From: a virus
Taxonomy: Duplodnaviria > Heunggongvirae > Uroviricota > Caudoviricetes
Length of the DNA: 44,295 nt
Strand: one strand, 5' to 3'
IMG/VR virus record: IMGVR_UViG_2734482556_000013
Below the pieces are notes generated by a model. That model saw only the letters and a program-made list of their open reading frames with translations, was not told the origin of the DNA and made no database searches. Shown here piece after piece: positions 5,085 to 42,743 of this stretch (positions within the stretch are counted from its first letter, which is position 1; each line of letters opens with the position of its first letter). The position numbers and the translations under genes were made by a program.

Positions 5085-5783
5085 TTACTGCGAAAGTTTG
5101 TTAATGGAAAGGAAGCCGCCAAAGTTGCCGACGTTATTGCGGAACTTACAACCGCTCAGGCATTTGCTGCATTTATCCTTCGTGATATCGGACGTTGGCT
5201 GGTCATATTCATCCGCGACAGCCGGACCGTGATAACCGCACTCATCACCGCGATAGGTCCAGGTGCAGGTATTAGCAAGCATGATGCGCCCCGGAAAAAC
5301 AGCGCCGTCCGTTTCCGTCGGCGTGGACAGTACAAAGGAGGCACTGACCGCGCTCAGTTCGCTGCACTGCTCAATACGCCAGCGGCTGATCACCTCCTGC
5401 TCCGGATCGGCGTCACTGTTTCCGTTGACGAAGTTCACCGCATCCAGAAAACGGGCGTAAACCTTACGCCTGACCACCGTTCCGCCGACCAGACTCTGCA
5501 GGTCTTCCGCCATCCCGGTGACCATGCCGTGCAGATTAGAGACTTTCAGCGTTGGCCTTGCACTGGCACCTTTGCCGTTCATCTCAAATCCACTCCCCTG
5601 AATGGGATAGGCCTGATACTGCCGACTCTGCCAGGTGACAGACTCTCCTTTCTCGTTCTGCTCATTGCAGAAAAAGTAGCGATCCCCGCCTACCTCGGTC
5701 AGGTCGATTTCCCAGAGCACCACGCTGGCCGACTGCTCCGCACGAATGCATTCATTCAGCGTTTCCTGTTGTATGTCCTGCAT
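5085..5783 (-). CDS. L: Tail tip protein L
   Basis: 232-aa translation with Cys-rich C-terminus (CTWTYRGDECGY...CSKCLSGC), lambda gpL-like; sits between M and K. Confidence 0.85.
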   Translation of the reverse strand: MQDIQQETLNECIRAEQSASVVLWEIDLTEVGGDRYFFCNEQNEKGESVTWQSRQYQAYPIQGSGFEMNGKGASARPTLKVSNLHGMVTGMAEDLQSLVGGTVVRRKVYARFLDAVNFVNGNSDADPEQEVISRWRIEQCSELSAVSASFVLSTPTETDGAVFPGRIMLANTCTWTYRGDECGYHGPAVADEYDQPTSDITKDKCSKCLSGCKFRNNVGNFGGFLSINKLSQ

Positions 5784-6121
5784 CAGATCACCACTTCGTC
5801 AAACTGACACGAAAAATCGGTATAGGTGATATGTTCTGTCGCTGACCACGTTCGACACACCACTCTGATTTTTCTGTTAATACCCGGCGGGCGCCAAAAA
5901 AAAGATTTATAGCCTTCATGCCGGGCTAAAAATTTTTCAAATGAATCACGTTCATTCGCCTCAACTTTGAAATCACAGGTGAAAACGCGCAGAGAATGAT
6001 TAAGTCCATTTGGACTTCGTTGCTCATAACCATCACCAAATCTTACAGTTTTTATCGATGGTTTATTTTCTGTTTTCATTCCATCCTCTGGTAACCAGTG
6101 AAATTCTTCCGTATTAGCCAC
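5783..6121 (-). CDS. M: Tail tip protein M
   Basis: 112-aa ORF directly downstream of the tape measure gene and upstream of L, overlapping both. Confidence 0.75.
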
Positions 6122-9100
6122 TTAACATTCCCCCATCACGTCGCATATTTAACAGATTGCCCTGCACCCGCTGATCAACCATCCCCATAAGTGCTTTTAT
6201 TGCCTGAGGGCCAATCTCTCCATTCTGGCCGTCATTTTGAATAGTGATTTGGTATACAGGGGCATAGGTAATATCTCCGCCTCCATTACCACTTTTACTA
6301 TTAATAGCTCTGACACCAAGAGAACCATCGGAAGTTCGTGTTAATGGCATAATGGCTTCCGGTCCAGCCTCACCAAAAACACCAGCCCCTTTTGCAAAAG
6401 CAAAAAATTGCGGGGAATCATAAATACCGTTCGAATACGTGCTCAATGACGGAGACTCATAAACACCGCCCTTTGCATTCGGAATAAATTTACTAATAGC
6501 ACTCCCGATAGTTCCTAAAATCCCCCCAGAAGAACTGTTACTAATGCTGTCGAAAATCCCAGTAATTGAAGCCTTTAATGCTATTCGACTAAGATCCGAA
6601 ATCACGGAAGTAGCGAAAGAACGAAAATTTGCCTTGCCTGTCGTGACAAAATCACCCAGCGCATCGGTCATCCCATCAAACATCTGAGTCGTGGTTGATT
6701 TTATCTGCTCACTGATATCCTTAGTGTCATCCAGCCAGTTATTGAATCCCTGGGAGGCACCACTAACCCAGTCTCCTGCCTGAATATCGAGCTGCTCGTT
6801 TTTCTGTCTGACAATTTCTTTTTCCCGTTCCAGAGCATCATTCAGAGCCTGCATTTTCTCTTGAAAAACATGATCTGACATTCCACGGGATTTATCTGCA
6901 TAGTCACGTTCAAGTTGCAGACGCTGATTGTTATATCCATGTTCAATCCGCAGTAATTCCTGCTGGCGTTGCTGATTTTTATCGCCAACCCCATAACCAG
7001 CAATCTGAATATCATACCCCTGCTGACGATTATCAATCGAAGCCTGCAATGAATCACGCCATGCTGTTATTTCGGCGGATTCCTTGATTAGCCTGTTATT
7101 TTTTTCAATCGCAACATTTTTCTCCATCAACGTGGTTATTTCTTCCCGGTGTAAGAGAAGCGATTTCTGATCCTGGGTTAATTTCGATGATGGTCGTGAC
7201 TCTAGGTCGGCAATCCGCTGACGCCACTTAACCAGTTCCTGTTCAGAGGAACTTAATTTAACGGTCAACTCAGCTTGTGAACTTAGTAACGCATTCTGTT
7301 GATTCAGATGATCAATCATTCGTTGGGCTGCATCATCAGAATAACCTTTCGCCTTTGGTTGCTTTGGATCTTTATAACGCTCATTTATTTGAGCGATAAG
7401 ATTATTATATTCTTCCTTTGAATACTGATTCTTTAGCTTTTCCAGTTTTGCAAGTTCACTAGCTCTCTGCTGCTCCCGGGTCTGATATTGTTTTGAAAAG
7501 GCATCTGCTCTCTGTCTGAGTTCAATTCCTTCCTGTTGTCGCTTGTTGTAATCGTTTATTGATGAATTTAGTACGTCCTGAGCAATTTTTTCTGCTTGAA
7601 GTACGCCCAATTGCTGCTTTAATCGTGCCAGCCTTTTATTTTGAGCTCCGCCATCTCCAATGCCACCTAACCCGAAAACTCCGGGTCGGGTATTTTTTTC
7701 TATTTCATCAATTTGACGGAGAACATCTGAGATTTTTTGATCAAGGGAGGCCTCACGGCCAATATCCAGCATGGAATCCCATGCCCATTTTGCGGAGTCT
7801 GCGACAGCTTTCCATGCAGTCTCAAGATAACCAAGATTTTCTTTAATCTGGTTGGTGCGCTGGATCATTGAGGATGAGTATTCTTCTGTCGCAATGCGGG
7901 CGGCCTCCTGCTGGTTCCCTTCATCCTGTAGCGCCTTAATCTGGTTATAAGTCGCAAGTGTCAGAAAATGGTACTGATCATTAAGTTTTGATATGGCACT
8001 GACAGGATCCTTTGCAATTTCATTGAAGTCATTAACCAGTTGTTCGGTTGATATTCCTGTTACTTCGCTCGTTTTTACTATCGCTGTCGTCACTTGCTCC
8101 AGCGAACTGCTCGCTACCTTTCCCGAACGCACAAGCTGATTTAATACTGCCGCCGCAGCACCAGTTGTCGAATCAGCCGCATTCCCGGCACGTTGAGCTA
8201 TATCGCCCAATTGCCCGCTGGTTGTCCCCAACTGATTTCCGGTAAGAATAAGAGATTTATTAAATTCGTCCTGCTCCTGAGAGCCTTTATAGTAAGCCAG
8301 TCCTAAGACCCCAACGGCTGCTGCGGCCAGGGTAAAAGGATTAATTAATCCCAGCACATAAGAACCTACACCTTTGATCGCCGGGCCAATCCCACCGAAC
8401 ATATCTTTTAGCTGGCCGCCCTGCTGCATTAACACCATAAATGGCGACTGACCAGTGGACAACCCAACAACAATATCCGTCATTTGTACAGGCAACATGC
8501 GCATAGCAAAAGCCGTTTGTTTTGCCGACATTCCGGTTTTGCTTAATTGTGATTGAGTAACCTCAAGCTCACTCCGCATAGCACGAAGTTTTCCAGAAAG
8601 CTCCTCATACATTTCAGGAGAAAGCATCCCCTTAGCTTTTGCTTCATTGAGCTGTTTCTGTTGTTCTACCAGACGATTAAAAGCAGTTCCGACAGGATCA
8701 AGTTGAGCAATCAGACGTTGCAAAGCAACAACCTGTTCATCATGCGCTTTTGCTGCTTCTCGCTCTGCCTGAGCCTCTCCGGTAAGCTCTCGCCGTGTTT
8801 CCTGTATTTTTCGGCTATAATTCTCAAACTGAGAACCATTTATTTTCCCGGATGCAAACGCAGCATTAAGTTCATCATGCTGTTGTTCAAGATTTCTTAG
8901 CGCCGCAGCCAGAGGGTCGATCTTGTCCAGCATTCTTTGAAAGGCCTGAGCCTGCGCTTCCTGCTGGGCGGCAGCAAGTTTTCCGGCCTTCTCGGCTTCT
9001 CTCTGCGCTTGCGCAACCCCGCTCAATTCCTCTGTGGTTTCATTAAGTTTACGGACAAGAAATTCATATTCTTCTTTATCAATAAGCCCTTTATCGAAAA

Positions 9101-9347
9101 ATTTCTTTAATTCAGAATAGCGTCGACCGACAGTATCAATTGCGGCACCAACTGGATCAATAGCTGCTTTTAATTTTGCGAGCGCGTTCTTCTCATCTTC
9201 TGTTGCCTTAGTCACTTTCCCTGCGCTATTTGCAGCAGTTTCCCCAGCCTGCGTCATTTTGACTAATGAGGAGGTCAGATTGTCAGCATTATTTTTCGCT
9301 CCAGTGCTATCAATAATTATTGCGAGACGCGAGGTTTGCTCTGCCAT
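6114..9347 (-). CDS. Tail tape measure protein
   Basis: 1077-aa ORF, coiled-coil and Gln/Ala-rich, Gly-rich C-terminal region; ATG at 9345-9347 preceded by GGAG; position after G/GT. Confidence 0.9.
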
Positions 9348-9365
9348 TTATTAAAACTCCTGACA

Positions 9366-9392
9366 ACAAAAAACCCACCGCGAAGTGGGTTT
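9366..9392 (-). terminator. Intrinsic terminator-like hairpin between G/GT and the tape measure gene
   Basis: On the minus strand: stem CCCAC, loop TTCGCG, stem GTGGG, then TTTTTTGTTG. Confidence 0.4.
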
Positions 9393-9512
9393 CAGGCGAC
9401 ATAATAGTAGATATAGCGATTACGAGGCCACGCAATGCTTTTCTCCAGGAGCATCATCGATTTAATTAAAGACACCATCACATCTCTGTAACAGAGTGTA
9501 CGTAATTAACAA

Positions 9513-9833
9513 CTACACACACTGCTCCTGAAAATACTGGTCATCCAGTGCAAAGATCACTGCTTCAAATTCATCGCGCTCAATCAATACCGGATGAGTG
9601 GCTAAATATTCATTTATCTCTGTCAGAGATAAAGGCAAAGGCACCCCAGCCATTCCAGCATAACGTCGGGCACGGGATATTACCGAATAGGCGTACAACA
9701 ACTCCTTAAGCACCGGGTCTATTTCTGGTTCCGGTATCGGTGGCAACCTGAGTTTTTCTCGCTTCCATCTTGCCTTTTCCCCCCTTTCTCCCCCGAACTC
9801 CGATAACCACCGCTGGGCAGCTATGGCTTTTTT
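9513..9833 (-). CDS. Tail assembly chaperone GT, -1 frameshift extension (T portion)
   Basis: The -1 frame is open from the slippery site at 9827-9833 to the stop at 9513-9515; the ORF-track frame at 9513-9746 is this extension. Confidence 0.7.
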   Translation of the reverse strand, partial: KKAIAAQRWLSEFGGERGEKARWKREKLRLPPIPEPEIDPVLKELLYAYSVISRARRYAGMAGVPLPLSLTEINEYLATHPVLIERDEFEAVIFALDDQYFQEQCV

Positions 9834-10282
9834 ATCGTATCCTGCTTCTGCTGCTCTTTACCCTGGGCGATGCTGGCTGCTTCTGCAAGGATCTGCCAGT
9901 ACAACTCTGGATTCTGCTTAAGCAGCGCGATCCCTCGTTCTGCCGTATATTCCAGTGCAACCTCAACACCATTAACCAGTTCACCAACCCCTTTCCAGTC
10001 TTTCAGCAGATAACGAGCGGCATTATCAATGAGTAAATCATCAACAGAATCCACCTCGGAAACCTTTGAAATATCAAACTCCTTCGTTCCGACGTGCAAA
10101 CTGGCATCCATTTTCTCAATGTGGCGACGGATTAATGCATTACGGGAGCGATACTGATCGTTATCGCTGCTTGCCACCAACAGTTTTAACCCGTCTACAG
10201 GTTTTAAGTCCTTCATTGGCGTAAACCAGCGTTCTCCACCAATGATAATTTTCTGATTAAGAATAAACATCCATAACCTCAT
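9821..10282 (-). CDS. Tail assembly chaperone G
   Basis: 153-aa acidic protein between major tail protein and tape measure; ends with the slippery heptamer. Confidence 0.75.
   Translation of the reverse strand: MRLWMFILNQKIIIGGERWFTPMKDLKPVDGLKLLVASSDNDQYRSRNALIRRHIEKMDASLHVGTKEFDISKVSEVDSVDDLLIDNAARYLLKDWKGVGELVNGVEVALEYTAERGIALLKQNPELYWQILAEAASIAQGKEQQKQDTIKKP
9827..9833 (-). other. Programmed -1 ribosomal frameshift slippery heptamer A AAA AAG
   Basis: Minus strand reads ...GAT ACG ATA AAA AAG CCA TAG at the end of G; a -1 slip enters the open T frame. Confidence 0.7.
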
Positions 10283-10330
10283 TCAATGCGTCCCCCTGTA
10301 GGGCAGTACCACAGGAGGAATAACGGAAAA

Positions 10331-11293
10331 TCAACTAATCGCCTCAGCACTGGCTTTTGCGATCACGGCAGCCGGGGAATTTTTTTTTCTGGTTATCGTA
10401 GGTGCTTCATCTGCTGCGGTAATGCTCAATTGAACCTGGATAATGTCGCTATTACCCCCATCAGGCCATTCACCTGACACCTGAACCTTCGGGAAACTGA
10501 AAGTGTATGCCCCCTCTCCATTCGAAAGCGTGAAGCTGAACGGAACTGTTTCTCCAGTCAGTGTTTTACTCCAGATTTCCCACGCGGCTTTAGACCATGA
10601 AAGCGTCACCGTACCGGACGGTGTAAAAGTAGTCGGAATATTTGCTCCTGCATAAGGCGAGCCAGTCCCGATACAACGCTGTGTCTGGAGTTTGTTATCG
10701 AACTGAATATCAAAACTGTCGATACAAAAACCGTTACCTCCGGCAACACCATTCAGGCTTACTGCTGAAACCTCCTTAAACGAATAACGTAGCTTTCCTG
10801 CACTATCCACAGGTTCGCCTTTGATAAAATTCGTATCATCGGCCTTTGATTCCCAGTCCAGTCCGGCAAAGGTTACGGTCGCTGTAATATCGCCGTCGTT
10901 AGGGATCTGCATTTTCCATGAGCCAACCTGCGCTCCTCTGACGACAGAGGCAATTCCGACATCGGACGCATAGGTCGCCAGAGAAAATGTTATTCGCTCA
11001 TTCCCCATTGTCAGAGAATCGCCTGACCATTCCGCGCCGAAACAGGATGCAAGAAAATCATCATGTTGACCCCAGCGAAATTTGGTACCAACATCACCGC
11101 CGACATCCACAGTGCCAGGCGTCGCCCCCTGAGCCATCCGGGAGCCACCAATCTCATTATTTTCGCCTTTATTCTGGGTGGGTTTTACTCCCCAGCTTGT
11201 GCGTTTTAATAAACTCCAGTCACCACTTGCTGGCGTAGTGCCTGCAACCGTCTCCCGGATAAATGCCGAGATAACCTTTGCACCTGAACTCAC
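10331..11293 (-). CDS. Major tail protein (V-like, with C-terminal Ig-like extension)
   Basis: 320-aa ORF in the canonical position upstream of G; Ser/Thr/Gly-rich C-terminal part resembles Big_2-type decoration domains. Confidence 0.8.
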   Translation of the reverse strand: MSSGAKVISAFIRETVAGTTPASGDWSLLKRTSWGVKPTQNKGENNEIGGSRMAQGATPGTVDVGGDVGTKFRWGQHDDFLASCFGAEWSGDSLTMGNERITFSLATYASDVGIASVVRGAQVGSWKMQIPNDGDITATVTFAGLDWESKADDTNFIKGEPVDSAGKLRYSFKEVSAVSLNGVAGGNGFCIDSFDIQFDNKLQTQRCIGTGSPYAGANIPTTFTPSGTVTLSWSKAAWEIWSKTLTGETVPFSFTLSNGEGAYTFSFPKVQVSGEWPDGGNSDIIQVQLSITAADEAPTITRKKNSPAAVIAKASAEAIS

Positions 11294-24180: not shown

Positions 24181-24673
24181 TGCTGACCCCACAAACAGAT
24201 TTCACGCTCAATCTCACGACGAGTCATGAGACCTTTCCATTGCTTACCGCCAGCATATGTCCAGCGACGTAGCTGATCACATGCGCCTTTGATATCGCCC
24301 TGGTTTATTTTGCGAAGAAGCGTCGATGTTCTGAAATTGCCAGCGCCCACGTTGTAAACGAACGAGTAAAGAGCGCCGCGCGTTGTTTCCGGTATATCGA
24401 CTTTGATGTACGGGTTAATTTGTCTGGCGACAGTGGCAAGGTCTTTATTCAAGAGTGTTTTGCATTCTGCTTTGGTATACGTTTTACCGAGCATGATGTC
24501 TTTTCCTGTATGCCCGTGACATACAGTCCATACACCAANATATCTTTGTATGGTATGTAGCTGACACCTTCCAGACCATCGTTACCACTTGGGCCAGTGA
24601 TTAACACTGATGCTATAGCAATTGCTCCGCCACCAATAGCAGCAGCAACGACTTTTCGTAATGATGGAGGCAT
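24177..24673 (-). CDS. SAR endolysin (phage 21 R-type lysozyme); frame disrupted at ambiguous base 24539
   Basis: N-terminal piece [44 protein letters not shown] (SAR domain) and C-terminal piece ...[30 protein letters not shown]... are in different frames either side of the n; total length 497 nt is one base short of a multiple of three. Confidence 0.75.
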
Positions 24674-24888
24674 TATTCACCTCTCGCAGCCTTGCGCTTA
24701 TCTTCTTTAATCTTGAAATAAAGGTTTGTCAGGTACGTCAGCAGGCCAAATACCAGACTACCCAGCACACCGATTGCAGCCCACTGTGACGGAGTTACTC
24801 TATCGAGCAACTGTAAAAACCAGTAGCCAGCACTGCCTGCGGAGGTGCCGTAGGCAATGCCTGTTGAAATTTTGTCCATGGATTTCAT
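24673..24888 (-). CDS. Pinholin (phage 21 S-type holin/antiholin, dual-start)
   Basis: [71 protein letters not shown], 71 aa, two TMDs; stop overlaps the endolysin start. Confidence 0.8.
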
Positions 24889-25139
24889 AGCCTCACCTCC
24901 GCACGGAACGGATGGCATAGTTATTATGTGTAGGCTTTCAGACACATCAATCAGAGCCTTAATTGATATATATGCTGGAGACGATGCAATATAAAAAGCT
25001 CGCCGTAGCGAGCTAATAAAATGTATTTCTCTGATATTATGTTTATTTGTATTAGCTCAGACTTGACATCACAGGTTTCGTATATAGAACATCATCAAAT
25101 CTGTCAGTTTGCTATGAATGAGATATAGTAATTGAAGAG

Positions 25140-25535
25140 CTAACCTCGCATGTCAAAGCCAGATTTCTGAAAATCTCTGTAGACTTCCGGATTGTTGAAG
25201 GCCGGAAATTTGGCTTTATGAGCTGCGGACTTTATCGCTTCGCAATAGGCTTTATCACCGTTACTGGTAGATATTTTTAACGCCGTGCCATCCTGAGAGA
25301 ATTCCATATGCAACCTGCATTTTTTCCCTTTCCAGTTATGCGGCTCATCAAGTTTGGCATTAATTGCAGCTCTGATTCCCCGCGCTTGCGCCCCCCATTC
25401 ATCCTGATCATCCCAGCGTCCTGAACTGCAACTACCTGTAGCAGTAGTTTTGTGGCAATCTGAAGGGTGTAAAGGTGTGCATCCCGCAACAAAACCGACC
25501 CAAAAAGTCAACATAACGATTTTCTTTAATCCCAC
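25140..25535 (-). CDS. Lipoprotein with TolA C-terminal (domain III)-like fold, paralog 1
   Basis: GTG start at 25533-25535 preceded by GAGGAG; signal peptide plus lipobox VAGC; C-terminal ...KGKKCRLHMEFSQDGTALKIS...YCEAIKSAAHKAKFPAFNNPEVYRDFQ shares the pattern of paralog 2. Confidence 0.6.
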   Translation of the reverse strand: MGLKKIVMLTFWVGFVAGCTPLHPSDCHKTTATGSCSSGRWDDQDEWGAQARGIRAAINAKLDEPHNWKGKKCRLHMEFSQDGTALKISTSNGDKAYCEAIKSAAHKAKFPAFNNPEVYRDFQKSGFDMRG

Positions 25536-25685
25536 TTCTTGCTCCTCAATCCATTAAAATCTCAGCAATAGTAGTTGTTACGTCCGCCACTGGCTCAGAG
25601 CTGACTATCCGCTAAATTTAGCTCAGTGCCGTAGCTGTGTCAGAACAAACCTAAGCCGAAACCGTTTATTACAAAACAATAAATA

Positions 25686-26114
25686 TCAGGGTTTAAAATC
25701 CAGCACCCCATTTTGAAATACTTTATATACTTCCGGCGAAGGGGGGGCAGGTATATCAGCATTCTTTATCGCATTCATCGCTTCACGACATAAATCGAGG
25801 TCTCCACTTTCTCTTTTAACCTCCAGTAGAAGGCCATTCGGGGCCATATGCATTCTCAGTGTACACTCTTTTCCTGAATACTTACTCGCATCCCCGAACT
25901 GTTTTTCGATGGCGCTCTTGATTTGATGGGCATACAGACGGATATCCTCACTAACATCAGAAGTACGTTCAGATGAACTCACATACTGTGTCTCTATTGC
26001 TTTATCGGAGTAATATGATGTACGGTCATGATAATTTGTCGATACAGCATCAGTGCACCCGATAATAATCCCACTAATAATCAACGTAAGAATTGATGCG
26101 CTACGAAAACCCAT
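25686..26114 (-). CDS. Lipoprotein with TolA C-terminal (domain III)-like domain, paralog 2
   Basis: ATG preceded by GAGG; lipobox IIGC; C-terminal YAHQIKSAIEKQFGDASKYSGKECTLRMHMAPNGLLLEVKRESGDLDLCREAMNAIKNADIPAPPSPEVYKVFQNGVLDFKP closely parallels the remembered C-terminus of E. coli TolA. Confidence 0.65.
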   Translation of the reverse strand: MGFRSASILTLIISGIIIGCTDAVSTNYHDRTSYYSDKAIETQYVSSSERTSDVSEDIRLYAHQIKSAIEKQFGDASKYSGKECTLRMHMAPNGLLLEVKRESGDLDLCREAMNAIKNADIPAPPSPEVYKVFQNGVLDFKP

Positions 26115-26702
26115 TTTTCCTCACATATGTCATATAGTAAAGGATTATATATACCGTTGTTTTGGACGCTCAAACAGCGAATCAGATCAAATAAAACGCA
26201 CATTTGTTAACATTTACACAAAGTCTGCGTGGGATATTCTGAAAGAATATCCATAATGTGGAGAGAATCTATTGAAGTGCATGGTGCCGGGTGCCTCCCG
26301 GTGAACAAAATGTTCGTGATACCTGTCGGCGACAGAAAAGGTTAATGGTATCACCCCACCGCACAGGGGGATTCACCATGCAGGAGTTTTCTTAGCAAAC
26401 TCACTGCGCGCCCGGCAACTCCCAACCACATAAAATGCGGAGTTTGTGGCATTTATGCATATAACTCGCAGGAATTATCTTAAAAAACTGATGTCGATCC
26501 GGATTAAAAAGAAGCAGGTCATCATCAGATGACTGGAAAAAAGGAAAACAAAAAATACTCATCATACAGTTTTGATTGCAGGGATGAGCCTGCTATGCAC
26601 AATATGCAGAATATAAGCAAGATAAAAATATGCAGGCATATTATTTCGGATCTTGTTATTAACACAACCTTTTTAATAATCATTTGGCATACAATAAACC
26701 AG

Positions 26703-26731
26703 CCCAAAAAGAACCGCCTAAACAGGCGGTT
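26703..26731 (-). terminator. Intrinsic terminator-like hairpin in the Q to late-gene intergenic region
   Basis: Minus strand: AACCGCC TGTTTA GGCGGTT followed by CTTTTTGGG. Confidence 0.45.
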
Positions 26732-27048
26732 GGTCAATACAAAGGATGCTTCGTCTTTATTATAGTAATCTGAGGCGTCGGGTGTCTTGTATCAGACAAC
26801 ATATTGTCCCGCTAAACAGCGAATTACAAACCACCCTGCAATGATCTCTCATCTCATTTTATATGAGTTGACGACATCAGGATAACGCATCATCAGCCCC
26901 TGCCAAGAAATATCAAAACTCCCGCCAGCAATGTGTTATCACAATATTGTAAAAAAAACACAGCACCGAAACTATAACTGGTCTCTGTTATAATTTGGAG
27001 CAGAAAGACCAGTTGCCCAACTAGCAGCATTCTCCCCTGCTTTCCTGA

Positions 27049-27080
27049 CGTAAAAAAACCGCATTAAGCGGTTTTTTTAC
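27049..27080. terminator. Bidirectional intrinsic terminator just downstream of Q
   Basis: AAAAAAACCGC ATTAA GCGGTTTTTTT: GC stem flanked by an A-run and a T-run, so it has a U-tract on either strand. Confidence 0.6.
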
Positions 27081-27158
27081 GATGTCCATGTCTGCAATCC
27101 GCCTCGCGATACAGCTTTGCGAAGCATAGCAAAATTGAAGCAGTTTATACGTAAGAAA

Positions 27159-27701
27159 TCAAGCCATTTTCTCAGCAAATGATTCACGCATGGGAATATA
27201 TAGGGCATACTCAGCAACAGCTAACCAATTAGCAATCCGTTTTTCGCATGTGCTAAAACACCACTCTGGGTGTGCATCATTTAGCAATTCAGCCATTTTG
27301 CGCTTAGTCATCCCCCGCCCTTCATAGCGTTGCCGGAGAATGCAAATCAATCCTGGATGCTCTGCCAGCACCTCACTTATGACTCGATCAATACATAACG
27401 CCTCTGCATCAGTACAATGCGCCAGCCAGCTCTTTTGCTTGCCGTTGATCATCTCTCGCAAAAACGCTTCCAGCTCAGCTTTCTCTATTCCCGCTTTTTT
27501 CATTCTGCGCAGGGCTTCATTAATGGCTGTTTTCGTCAGTTTTTTGGATGCCAACAACTGATTGAACATATTCCCTGACCTGCCACCGCCAATATACGAC
27601 CAGCGCCCCCACATACGTAGTTTTCCCTGAATCCAGACACTTTCCAGCGTGGTGAGGCGAAGGTGTTCTCCGCTTTTTCCTGTATTCGTTGGGTAAATCA
27701 T
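27159..27701 (-). CDS. Late-gene antitermination protein Q
   Basis: 180-aa protein at the end of the early-right operon immediately upstream of the late region; contains a Cys/His cluster (HCTDAEALCIDR...); family assignment from position and recollection. Confidence 0.7.
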   Translation of the reverse strand: MIYPTNTGKSGEHLRLTTLESVWIQGKLRMWGRWSYIGGGRSGNMFNQLLASKKLTKTAINEALRRMKKAGIEKAELEAFLREMINGKQKSWLAHCTDAEALCIDRVISEVLAEHPGLICILRQRYEGRGMTKRKMAELLNDAHPEWCFSTCEKRIANWLAVAEYALYIPMRESFAEKMA

Positions 27702-42542: not shown

Positions 42543-42743
42543 ATGGAGGTGTTCATGTATAAAATTACCGCCACTATTGAAAAGGAAGGTGGCACTCCTA
42601 CTAACTGGACAAGATATTCAAAATCTAAACTAACGAAATCAGAATGCGAAAAAATGCTCTCAGGTAAAAAAGAAGCAGGCGTTTCCAGAGAGCAGAAAGT
42701 AAAACTGATAAATTTTAATTGCGAGAAACTTCAGTCCTCGTGA
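42543..42743 (+). CDS. ydaC: Small Rac protein YdaC-like
   Basis: ATG 42543 preceded by GGA; translation MEVFMYKITATIEKEGGTPTNWTRYSKSKLTKSECEKMLSGKKEAGVSREQKV... Confidence 0.5.
   Translation: MEVFMYKITATIEKEGGTPTNWTRYSKSKLTKSECEKMLSGKKEAGVSREQKVKLINFNCEKLQSS

Follow-up and report, generated by a model that had tools for sequence, protein, structure and literature searches.

We examined a 44,295-nucleotide stretch of DNA, IMG/VR virus record IMGVR_UViG_2734482556_000013 (Caudoviricetes), which we call the window. Two neighboring genes on its minus strand, here named A and B, each encode a short lipoprotein that ends in a domain with the sequence and fold of domain III of the E. coli protein TolA (TolAIII). 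The original prediction, made from the letters of the DNA, had described them as two tandem phage lipoproteins with TolAIII-like C termini at the position where Stx phages carry stx. The two genes and their parts are as follows.

25686..26114, minus strand: gene A, a 142-aa lipoprotein with a signal peptide, a disordered linker of about 30 residues, and a TolAIII domain
26055..26114, minus strand: signal peptide and lipobox of A, MGFRSASILTLIISGIIIGC, with cleavage marked between it and the following TD; Cys20, Thr at +2
25689..25952, minus strand: TolAIII domain of A, aa 55-142, with disulfide cysteines C84/C109 kept
25140..25535, minus strand: gene B, a 131-aa lipoprotein with a GTG start; its signal peptide is followed by a conserved linker with cysteines and then by a divergent TolAIII domain
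25479..25535, minus strand: signal peptide and lipobox of B, MGLKKIVMLTFWVGFVAGC, with cleavage marked between it and the following TP; Cys19, Thr at +2
25404..25478, minus strand: linker of B, TPLHPSDCHKTTATGSCSSGRWDDQDEW, with two extra cysteines, conserved in alignments and constrained by the ratio of nonsynonymous to synonymous substitution rates (dN/dS)
25143..25403, minus strand: TolAIII domain of B, aa 45-131, with β3 strand F-D-M-R

Both open reading frames (ORFs) are preceded by a ribosome site, Shine-Dalgarno GAGGA 5 nt ahead of the ATG of A and GAGGAG 7 nt ahead of the GTG of B. As the criterion for a lipoprotein we used a basic n-region, a hydrophobic core, and a lipobox of the form [LVI][ASTVI][GAS]C, which is a test at the level of sequence pattern. 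A has the n-region MGFR, the core SASILTLIISGI, and the lipobox IIGC; in B these are MGLKK, IVMLTFWVGF, and VAGC. At this level both proteins look like substrates of Lgt/LspA, and the two ORFs and lipoboxes named by the original prediction are indeed there, on the minus strand. The prediction gave the lipoboxes in order of transcription but counted the ORFs in plus-strand coordinate order, in which its "first" ORF is B and its "second" is A. Across the family alignments the lipobox Cys is near-invariant (at least 90% conserved). In E. coli, an Asp at +2 keeps a lipoprotein from being sorted to the outer membrane, the Lol-avoidance rule. Since the +2 residue is not Asp but Thr in both A and B, the two proteins are probably anchored in the outer membrane; Asp is found at this position in none of the 59 lipobox-bearing members of the family.

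By sequence, the likeness of A and B to TolA is far above chance. The Pfam model TolA_C (PF06519, gathering cut-off 25) matches A with 82.6 bits over profile positions 4-96 of 96 and B with 54.6 bits over positions 10-92. In phmmer searches of the TolA chains in the PDB, A residues 55-142 aligned without gaps to TolA 334-421 (E = 5e-28), and B aligned without gaps to TolA 341-419 (E = 5e-9). The domain of A is 60% identical to E. coli TolAIII and that of B 34%, which agrees with the predicted status of B as the more divergent paralog. The segments said to parallel TolA, YAHQIKSAIEKQF, GKECTLRM, PNGLLLEV, and VYKVFQNGVLDFKP, are all present in A. A and B share only 29% identity with each other, and the pair is therefore not a recent duplication.

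Structure prediction had been proposed along with the TolA alignment, with the lack of a TolAIII fold as the outcome that would speak against the idea. AlphaFold2 gave predicted local distance difference test (pLDDT) values of about 85-98 over residues 51-142 of A and 45-131 of B, with the linkers at low confidence. The top Foldseek match of the A model in the PDB was E. coli TolAIII (2x9a_B) with a template modeling (TM) score of 0.96 and a root mean square deviation (rmsd) of 0.7 Å; the top matches of the B model were again E. coli TolAIII (3qdp/2x9a, TM of about 0.9, rmsd of 1.1 Å). C-terminal domains of TonB appeared as distant matches only. The TolAIII fold, α-β-β-α-α-β, is thus present in both proteins, and the disulfide pair of TolA (C363/C388) is invariant in every family alignment, A and B included.

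A and B are nevertheless not bona fide TolA. The equivalog model for full-length TolA, NF007065, gives A 107.8 and B 53.7 bits, both far under its cut-off of 213, and the match is confined to model positions from about 293 to 387. For TIGR02794 (TolA), A scores 75.6 bits, which is over the cut-off of 59.45 but covers model positions 265-362 only, and B scores 47.2 bits. Domain I, the transmembrane anchor of TolA, and domain II, its long helix, are absent from both proteins, and a lipoprotein signal stands in their place. Because of the scores below the NF007065 cut-off and the missing domains I and II, the database names "TolA" and "tolA pseudogene" are misnomers. In RefSeq/PGAP (locus L001, 6687-6947 and 6141-6515), A is a pseudogene of 261 bp only, and B starts from an internal Met and loses the n-region of its signal. 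PHROGs puts both proteins into phrog_5772, "unknown function."

We then mapped onto A and B, through their ungapped alignments with TolA, the contact residues of TolAIII described in two papers (PMC3365938, PMC4339652). When D418 or K420 in the β3 strand of TolA is replaced by proline (D418P, K420P), ColN, g3p-N1, and TolB no longer bind, and the phenotype is fully tol (PMC4339652). In A this strand reads LDFKP, the same as in TolA, D418 and K420 included; in B it is FDMR, a conservative change. The edge contacted by colicin A is L375-P380, together with the cation-π lysines K368, K379, and K396 (PMC3365938). Most of it is retained in A (L-L-E-V-K-R), where K396 is unchanged and K368 has become His. 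B has other residues at these contacts: K368E, D377K, K379S, and K396H. Since B has lost these contacts and carries a strongly conserved extra linker with cysteines, its ligand may differ from that of A. In B and its closer relatives the segment that follows the anchor is conserved as C-x-P-L-H-P-S-x-C-H-K-T-T-A-x-G-S-C-S-S-G-R-W-D-D-Q-D-E-W, and it contains two additional cysteines. The B linker (…GSCSSGRWDDQDEWG) had no match in a phmmer search against all PDB sequences and is modeled by AlphaFold2 at low confidence; a likeness to the colicin TolB box DGSGWSSE…WG is speculative.

Judged by substitution patterns, A and B are under strong purifying selection, as are the B-type genes of plasmids and chromosomes described below (dN/dS of about 0.1). 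Against two prophage variants, dN/dS of the A domain is 0.09-0.24; for B, compared with six homologues, it is 0.07-0.12. Residues 20-49, the B linker, give 0.02-0.13, a constraint on par with that on the B domain, and the linker of A is relaxed (0.5-0.6).

The pair lies in the late region of a Rac-family prophage, which carries recET, kilR, sieB, trkG, ynaK, ydaY, and the small RNA (sRNA) RalA. RalA, which is of full length, confirms the identity of the prophage. The surroundings of A and B contain the following features.

42561-42739, minus strand: RalA antitoxin sRNA, full length (Rfam RF02694, 225 bits)
27159..27701, minus strand: gene at the Q position, DUF1133; the Phage_antitermQ match is borderline, just at the cut-off
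~27050-27080, minus strand: strong hairpin with a T-run directly 3' of the Q-position gene
26225..26411, minus strand: STnc100-family sRNA element (RF02076, 86.6 bits, gathering 47), immediately upstream of A
26144..26173, minus strand: sigma-70 promoter-like site, TTGAGC, 18-nt spacer, TATAAT, 10/12 consensus, about 30 nt before the start of A
24990..25014, minus strand: hairpin resembling an intrinsic terminator, AGCTCGC-TACG-GCGAGCT with TTTTTAT after it, in the interval from B to the holin gene
24673..24945, minus strand: holin gene essD (P21 holin S family; PF04971, 119.9 bits), the first lysis gene downstream of the pair
24686..26305, minus strand: mosaic cassette made of the 3' part of STnc100, A, B, the terminator, and the holin gene, 99% conserved

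By Pfam, the genes upstream of the pair are DUF1367, YbcO, and the DUF1133 gene, and those downstream encode the P21-type holin, lysozyme, and Rz/Rz1. The identification of 27159..27701 as a putative Q follows from the borderline Pfam match and its position; we found no relative of the protein in the PDB. With this gene and its hairpin upstream and the holin downstream, the pair is located, as predicted, between Q with its terminators and the holin gene. Two further signals were seen nearby. The hairpin region after the Q-position gene (27050-27125, minus strand) has an isrK-like match of 21.6 bits, under the gathering score of 50. At 26703-26788 on the same strand, a promoter-like AAGACA and TATAAT with an 18-nt spacer are followed by a terminator hairpin within about 40 nt, and this region may be a late promoter with a leader terminator.

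With a promoter-like site on one side and a terminator-like hairpin on the other, the layout of the pair resembles that of a moron. G+C content of the region is 0.42-0.46, with no contrast to the flanks. Related prophages have other cargo or A alone at this place, and the pair is therefore dispensable for the phage. We compared the window region by blastn with 80 IMG/VR prophage loci. Both genes are intact in 74 of them, the rest being cut by contig ends or missed by string match. About 35 of the 80 cassette-bearing loci have a Q side and a lysozyme side with no relation to those of the window, and phage mEp460_ev081 has the cassette region in a different phage background. The left junction of the cassette (26305) falls inside the STnc100 element. 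A variants at 91% and 66-72% identity occur in other lambdoid prophages, again between Q and holin and without B, and one of these loci has a typical Stx-phage late region with a NanS-type esterase, DUF1378, DUF826, and holin. In prophage locus L126, an A variant is bracketed by three STnc100 copies (5704-5877, 6599-6803, and 6854-7061); further copies lie in prophage loci L129 (8039-8211) and L002 (5444-5634). In EDL933, tRNAs are followed in the slot by a gene of the TerB family, one of DUF3927, STnc100, and the esterase, in this order. In Stx2 phages, STnc100 is found 75 nt downstream of stx2AB (PMC12370729). The proposed equivalence with the stx position therefore holds for the late cargo zone, which is the same, but not for the exact site: A and B are downstream of STnc100, and stx2 is upstream of it. 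STnc100 elements bracket the slot for late cargo in lambdoid prophages and may serve as homologous joints for the exchange of this cargo, stx included.

Other cargo was seen in the same Q-to-holin slot. It consists of a TfpB-like gene and an AraC-family regulator in L122-L124 (3636-5539), a PmrD-like gene beside an IS200-type (Y1_Tnp) transposase in L125/L127 (3943-4877), and TerB-family and DUF3927 genes with tRNA-Ile and tRNA-Arg ahead of them in EDL933 (L129, 7439-8034). A ciprofloxacin-induced "TolA-type" gene has been mentioned for EDL933 CP-933O (PMC11125564), but the 75 kb around it hold no TolA-like gene, and the remark concerns a tail-fibre gene.

Of 5,426 complete E. coli genomes, 773 have the 1.3-kb A/B region with an identity of at least 99%. 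Among 50,697 sequenced phage genomes, searched by tblastn as well, only mEp460_ev081 has it, and a Foldseek search of the BFVD viral structures gave no significant TolAIII-like match. Genes of the B type are spread much more widely. About 600 plasmids have one at 88% nucleotide identity, and on IncI1/B/O plasmids it lies some 70-100 bp downstream of the relaxase gene nikB, in the same orientation.

L003 6004-6435 and L013 5004-5435: B-type gene on IncI1 plasmids, directly downstream of nikB
L012 5003-5434: B-type gene on pO157, between toxB and hok/psiAB, with nikB remnants adjoining

Since nikB remnants lie beside it, the pO157 copy appears to descend from an IncI1-like segment. B-type proteins with 78-89% identity are found in Citrobacter, Enterobacter, Klebsiella, Raoultella, Serratia, Leclercia, Lelliottia, Buttiauxella, and Yokenella, where the chromosomal genes stand alone with no phage genes nearby. 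In Serratia marcescens (L008-L011, about 8001-10736) the gene is located between nrdDG and genes of the GmrSD-like (DUF262-type) and HEPN-domain kinds, a neighborhood that is defence-island-like. The original name of phage lipoproteins is right in that A and B are carried by prophages, but they are not specific to phages: the B family is large and, in several Enterobacterales, chromosomal, and a single sequenced phage genome has the region. Two contigs of about 8 kb from Lachnospiraceae and Treponemataceae metagenome-assembled genome bins (CAAFVW010000016.1, L101; CAVCKO010000060.1, L102) also contain an IncI1-type nikB segment with a B-type gene. They share ORF clusters with the IncI1 locus L003 and are probably mis-binned fragments of enterobacterial plasmids.

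A profile search of 1.84 billion representatives recovered 589 relatives. Among the best 150 of these, 96 have at most 170 aa; 77 of the 96 appear to be complete, 59 of them with a lipobox. The lipoprotein-TolAIII architecture is represented by at least 59 clusters at 50% identity. The named relatives, from Serratia, Kosakonia, and Dryocola, are all labelled "TolA." In a rough neighbor-joining order, the long true TolAs come together, the A group is placed beside them, and the B group is far off. The family consensus retains the TolA-type C-terminal LDFK strand.

Compared with E. coli TolAIII (residues of about 334-421; PDB 1S62, 1TOL, 2X9A, 3QDP/3QDR), A and B are alike in fold (TM 0.9-0.96) and in the disulfide cysteines. 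Unlike TolA itself, they have no transmembrane anchor, no domain II, and no coupling to TolQR and the proton motive force, and a signal peptide with a short linker takes the place of these parts. An artificial arrangement of this kind was reportedly made by Levengood-Freyermuth, Click & Webster in 1993: cells with TolAIII placed in the periplasm are reported to have become tolerant to colicins E1, E2, E3, and A, with a leaky outer membrane, and the free domain is said to have led to periplasmic leakage and detergent sensitivity. A and B would be the natural counterpart of that secreted fragment, a free periplasmic TolAIII beside wild-type TolA. They differ from it in being lipid-anchored, as predicted, in having diverged from the host domain, in forming two paralogues, and in having expression signals of their own or of the phage.

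Cor of phi80 and N15, Llp of T5, and TraT of F are likewise small outer-membrane lipoproteins of mobile elements, the location being a prediction for A and B. Cor, Llp, and TraT shield the carrier cell from incoming phage or DNA by interfering with the entry receptor. The receptor that these proteins mask lies in the outer membrane (FhuA, OmpA), and their folds are unrelated to that of A and B, which would imitate a periplasmic co-receptor; we know of no sequence relationship between them and Cor, Llp, or TraT. As late cargo, A and B can be compared with stx in Stx phages and bor and lom in lambda. All are non-essential, lie in the zone from Q/pR' to the lysis genes, and have promoter-like and terminator-like signals of their own; the cargo of the Stx phages and of lambda differs from A and B in function and family, and stx2, as noted above, lies on the other side of STnc100. 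Another parallel is the g3p of filamentous phages. Made in infected cells, g3p leads to colicin tolerance and superinfection resistance, according to what PMC3102678 relates of Boeke, Model & Zinder 1982. The same g3p-TolAIII interaction would be the target of A and B, with opposite polarity: g3p occupies the TolA of the host, and A and B would occupy the TolA-binding site of the invader.

TolAIII is the co-receptor for the g3p of Ff and If1 and for colicins A and N. Of the readings considered, we favor one in which A and B are competitive TolAIII mimics, tethered to the outer membrane, that intercept Tol-dependent invaders. Each protein would display a free TolAIII domain in the periplasm. 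Because TolA domains I and II are missing, A and B cannot couple to the TolQR motor, but they would still offer the β-sheet edges that TolAIII uses for β-strand augmentation. The decoys would then capture ligands on their way to the TolA of the inner membrane. These would be the g3p of filamentous phages (Ff, If1, and IKe), bound through its N1 domain, and Tol-dependent colicins and related bacteriocins, bound through their translocation domains. A lysogen or plasmid host would become tolerant to such invaders, and this tolerance would be a lysogenic-conversion function of the moron type. A would be the close mimic and B a divergent second specificity. TolAIII binds ColN with an affinity of about 1 µM and TolB with one of about 40 µM (PMC4339652). 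Since invaders bind so much more tightly than TolB, protection without a strong tol defect would be possible, and a modest dose of decoy could intercept invaders with only a weak disturbance of the TolA-TolB cycle.

The functions suggested originally, namely, decoy, superinfection exclusion, colicin tolerance, or Tol-Pal modulation, are plausible for several reasons: A keeps LDFKP with D418/K420, found by Ridley & Lakey to be essential for the binding of TolB, colicin N, and g3p, and the colicin A edge is mostly intact in it; the lack of Asp at +2 in both proteins predicts an outer-membrane location; the B-type gene adjoins the relaxase gene of IncI1 plasmids, whose pili are the receptor of the TolA-dependent phage If1; and free TolAIII in the periplasm reportedly makes cells tolerant to colicins, with a leaky outer membrane. 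This phage attaches to IncI pili (PMC3102678, PMC7911639) and uses TolAIII as its co-receptor (PDB 2x9a). A B-type gene beside IncI1 transfer genes fits a countermeasure to pilus-dependent filamentous phages. The near-absence of the pair from sequenced virions fits a benefit to the resident host and not a function in the lytic cycle, and we count the Serratia copy beside GmrSD and HEPN defence genes toward a role in defence. We consider it likely that A binds ligands of TolAIII. For the full chain, from tethered mimics to interception of invaders, we put the chance at a little below even.

Several observations weigh against that chain. At the colicin A site, B has neither D377 nor any of the three cation-π lysines, and its linker is strongly constrained, which a simple decoy would not need. 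Chromosomal B-type genes with genus-specific synteny (Enterobacter, Leclercia, and Serratia) could mean a housekeeping role in the envelope. Free TolAIII in excess is harmful, giving a leaky tol-like phenotype, and a decoy would thus come at a cost. The promoter assigned to the pair is a consensus match only, and since A and B are downstream of pR', the bulk of their expression may fall in lytic growth only. The defence models of PADLOC-DB v2 gave no match to A or B at E values up to 1.

Three other explanations have to be weighed with these points in mind. The RefSeq/PGAP annotation of A as "tolA, incomplete, missing N-terminus" and the shortened start given to B would suit decaying pieces of a captured tolA, and in some strains the host prophage is itself a partly decayed Rac element. 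However, each gene has an intact reading frame, a Shine-Dalgarno sequence, and a canonical lipoprotein signal peptide, which TolA lacks, and both are under purifying selection. The same architecture recurs in the clusters counted above, A variants at 66-91% identity keep it in other prophages, and 74 of 80 prophage copies are intact. Selection and architecture effectively exclude debris, and we regard it as highly improbable. A different ligand or role deserves more weight. TolAIII and the C-terminal domain of TonB share a fold that is a general module for β-strand augmentation. B in particular, with its conserved disulfide-type linker, could have another ligand, such as a TonB-box-like segment of an outer-membrane protein, a peptidoglycan-associated factor, or another class of bacteriocin, or could serve a physiological role in the envelope, as a host function that mobile elements picked up. 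The chromosomal B family, with conserved genus-specific neighborhoods and 78-89% protein identity across genera, speaks for such a role; the linker constrained like a domain (residues 20-49, dN/dS of 0.02-0.13) and the loss of the colicin A site in B agree with it, and A has a weak TonB_2 match in Pfam (23.6 bits). Yet A, 60% identical to E. coli TolAIII, is nearer to it than to any short lipoprotein from outside the A family, which speaks for a TolA-like specificity, and the family consensus keeps the TolA-type LDFK strand. No partner can be named, and the linker has no match among PDB sequences. We think this explanation somewhat unlikely.

Tol-Pal itself could also be the object. Here a tethered TolAIII would bind the N terminus of TolB, or Pal or CpoB, compete with TolA, weaken the mobilization of Pal, and loosen the outer membrane, with tolerance to colicins and phages as a side effect. 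In a prophage it would act mainly once Q turns on the late operon, aiding envelope disruption, vesiculation, or release together with the holin, endolysin, and spanin. A and B are the first ORFs of the late operon, directly ahead of the holin gene and in one mosaic cassette with it, and the β3 edge kept in A is the edge used by the TolB N terminus (PMC4339652). Free TolAIII reportedly lets the periplasm leak and makes cells sensitive to detergent, which also speaks for this explanation. But the Rz/Rz1 spanins already handle the outer membrane, B-type genes also occur on conjugative plasmids and alone on chromosomes, without lysis genes, and the pair is almost never seen in sequenced phages that propagate actively. 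The promoter-like site and terminator that flank it are arranged as in morons expressed in lysogens, and the TolA-TolB affinity is weak. An antagonist or modulator of Tol-Pal is in our view unlikely, slightly more so than another ligand. Returning to decoys that intercept invaders, we can only tentatively, and with more doubt than confidence, extend them to the whole family. In this extension, stand-alone TolAIII lipoproteins would form a new class of envelope defence, "periplasmic co-receptor mimicry," present on prophages in 14% of complete E. coli genomes, on IncI1 plasmids and pO157, and on many Enterobacterales chromosomes, that stops filamentous phages and Tol-dependent bacteriocins once they are past the outer membrane. 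A and B would have different ligand spectra, the IncI1 copy would be directed against If1 and coexpressed with the transfer genes, and cargo of this kind, as well as stx, would be exchanged among lambdoid phages through recombination at STnc100 repeats.

The TolAIII domain itself is already recognized in databases (Pfam; "TolA C-terminal domain-containing protein" at NCBI; phrog_5772). In full-text literature, we found no description of a lipid-anchored stand-alone TolAIII, of the tandem A/B pair, of its spread on mobile elements, or of a proposed role; apparent matches were to the author name Tolar or to the chromosomal tolA gene. The current labels ("TolA," "cell envelope integrity protein TolA," and "tolA pseudogene") hide a distinct lipoprotein family. 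TolAIII is the common entry point for group A colicins and for filamentous phages of the Ff, If1, IKe, and CTXphi types, and in the Tol-Pal system it forms the tip that transmits force. A lipid-anchored copy of just this domain that is natural, widespread, and mobile would be a ready-made dominant competitor. If it is protective, it would partly explain the variable sensitivity of natural E. coli to colicins and inoviruses, and imitation of a co-receptor, as opposed to masking of a receptor, would be a new principle of defence against phages and bacteriocins. For IncI1 plasmids, whose pili are exploited by filamentous phages, it would also show a way in which the cost of these pili might be offset. 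If it tunes Tol-Pal instead, mobile elements would have a lever on outer-membrane integrity and vesiculation, which is relevant to pO157 and to antibiotic permeability. The family is common and can be tested cheaply, and it bears on the ecology of colicins and inoviruses and on Tol-Pal biology.

Two features of the window concern its letters. Near its start there are two long runs of N, from 859 and from 3603. Downstream of the holin gene, a single ambiguous base N at 24539 breaks the frame of the lysozyme gene (rrrD) into two ORF calls, and this gene is intact in a 100%-identical RefSeq genome.

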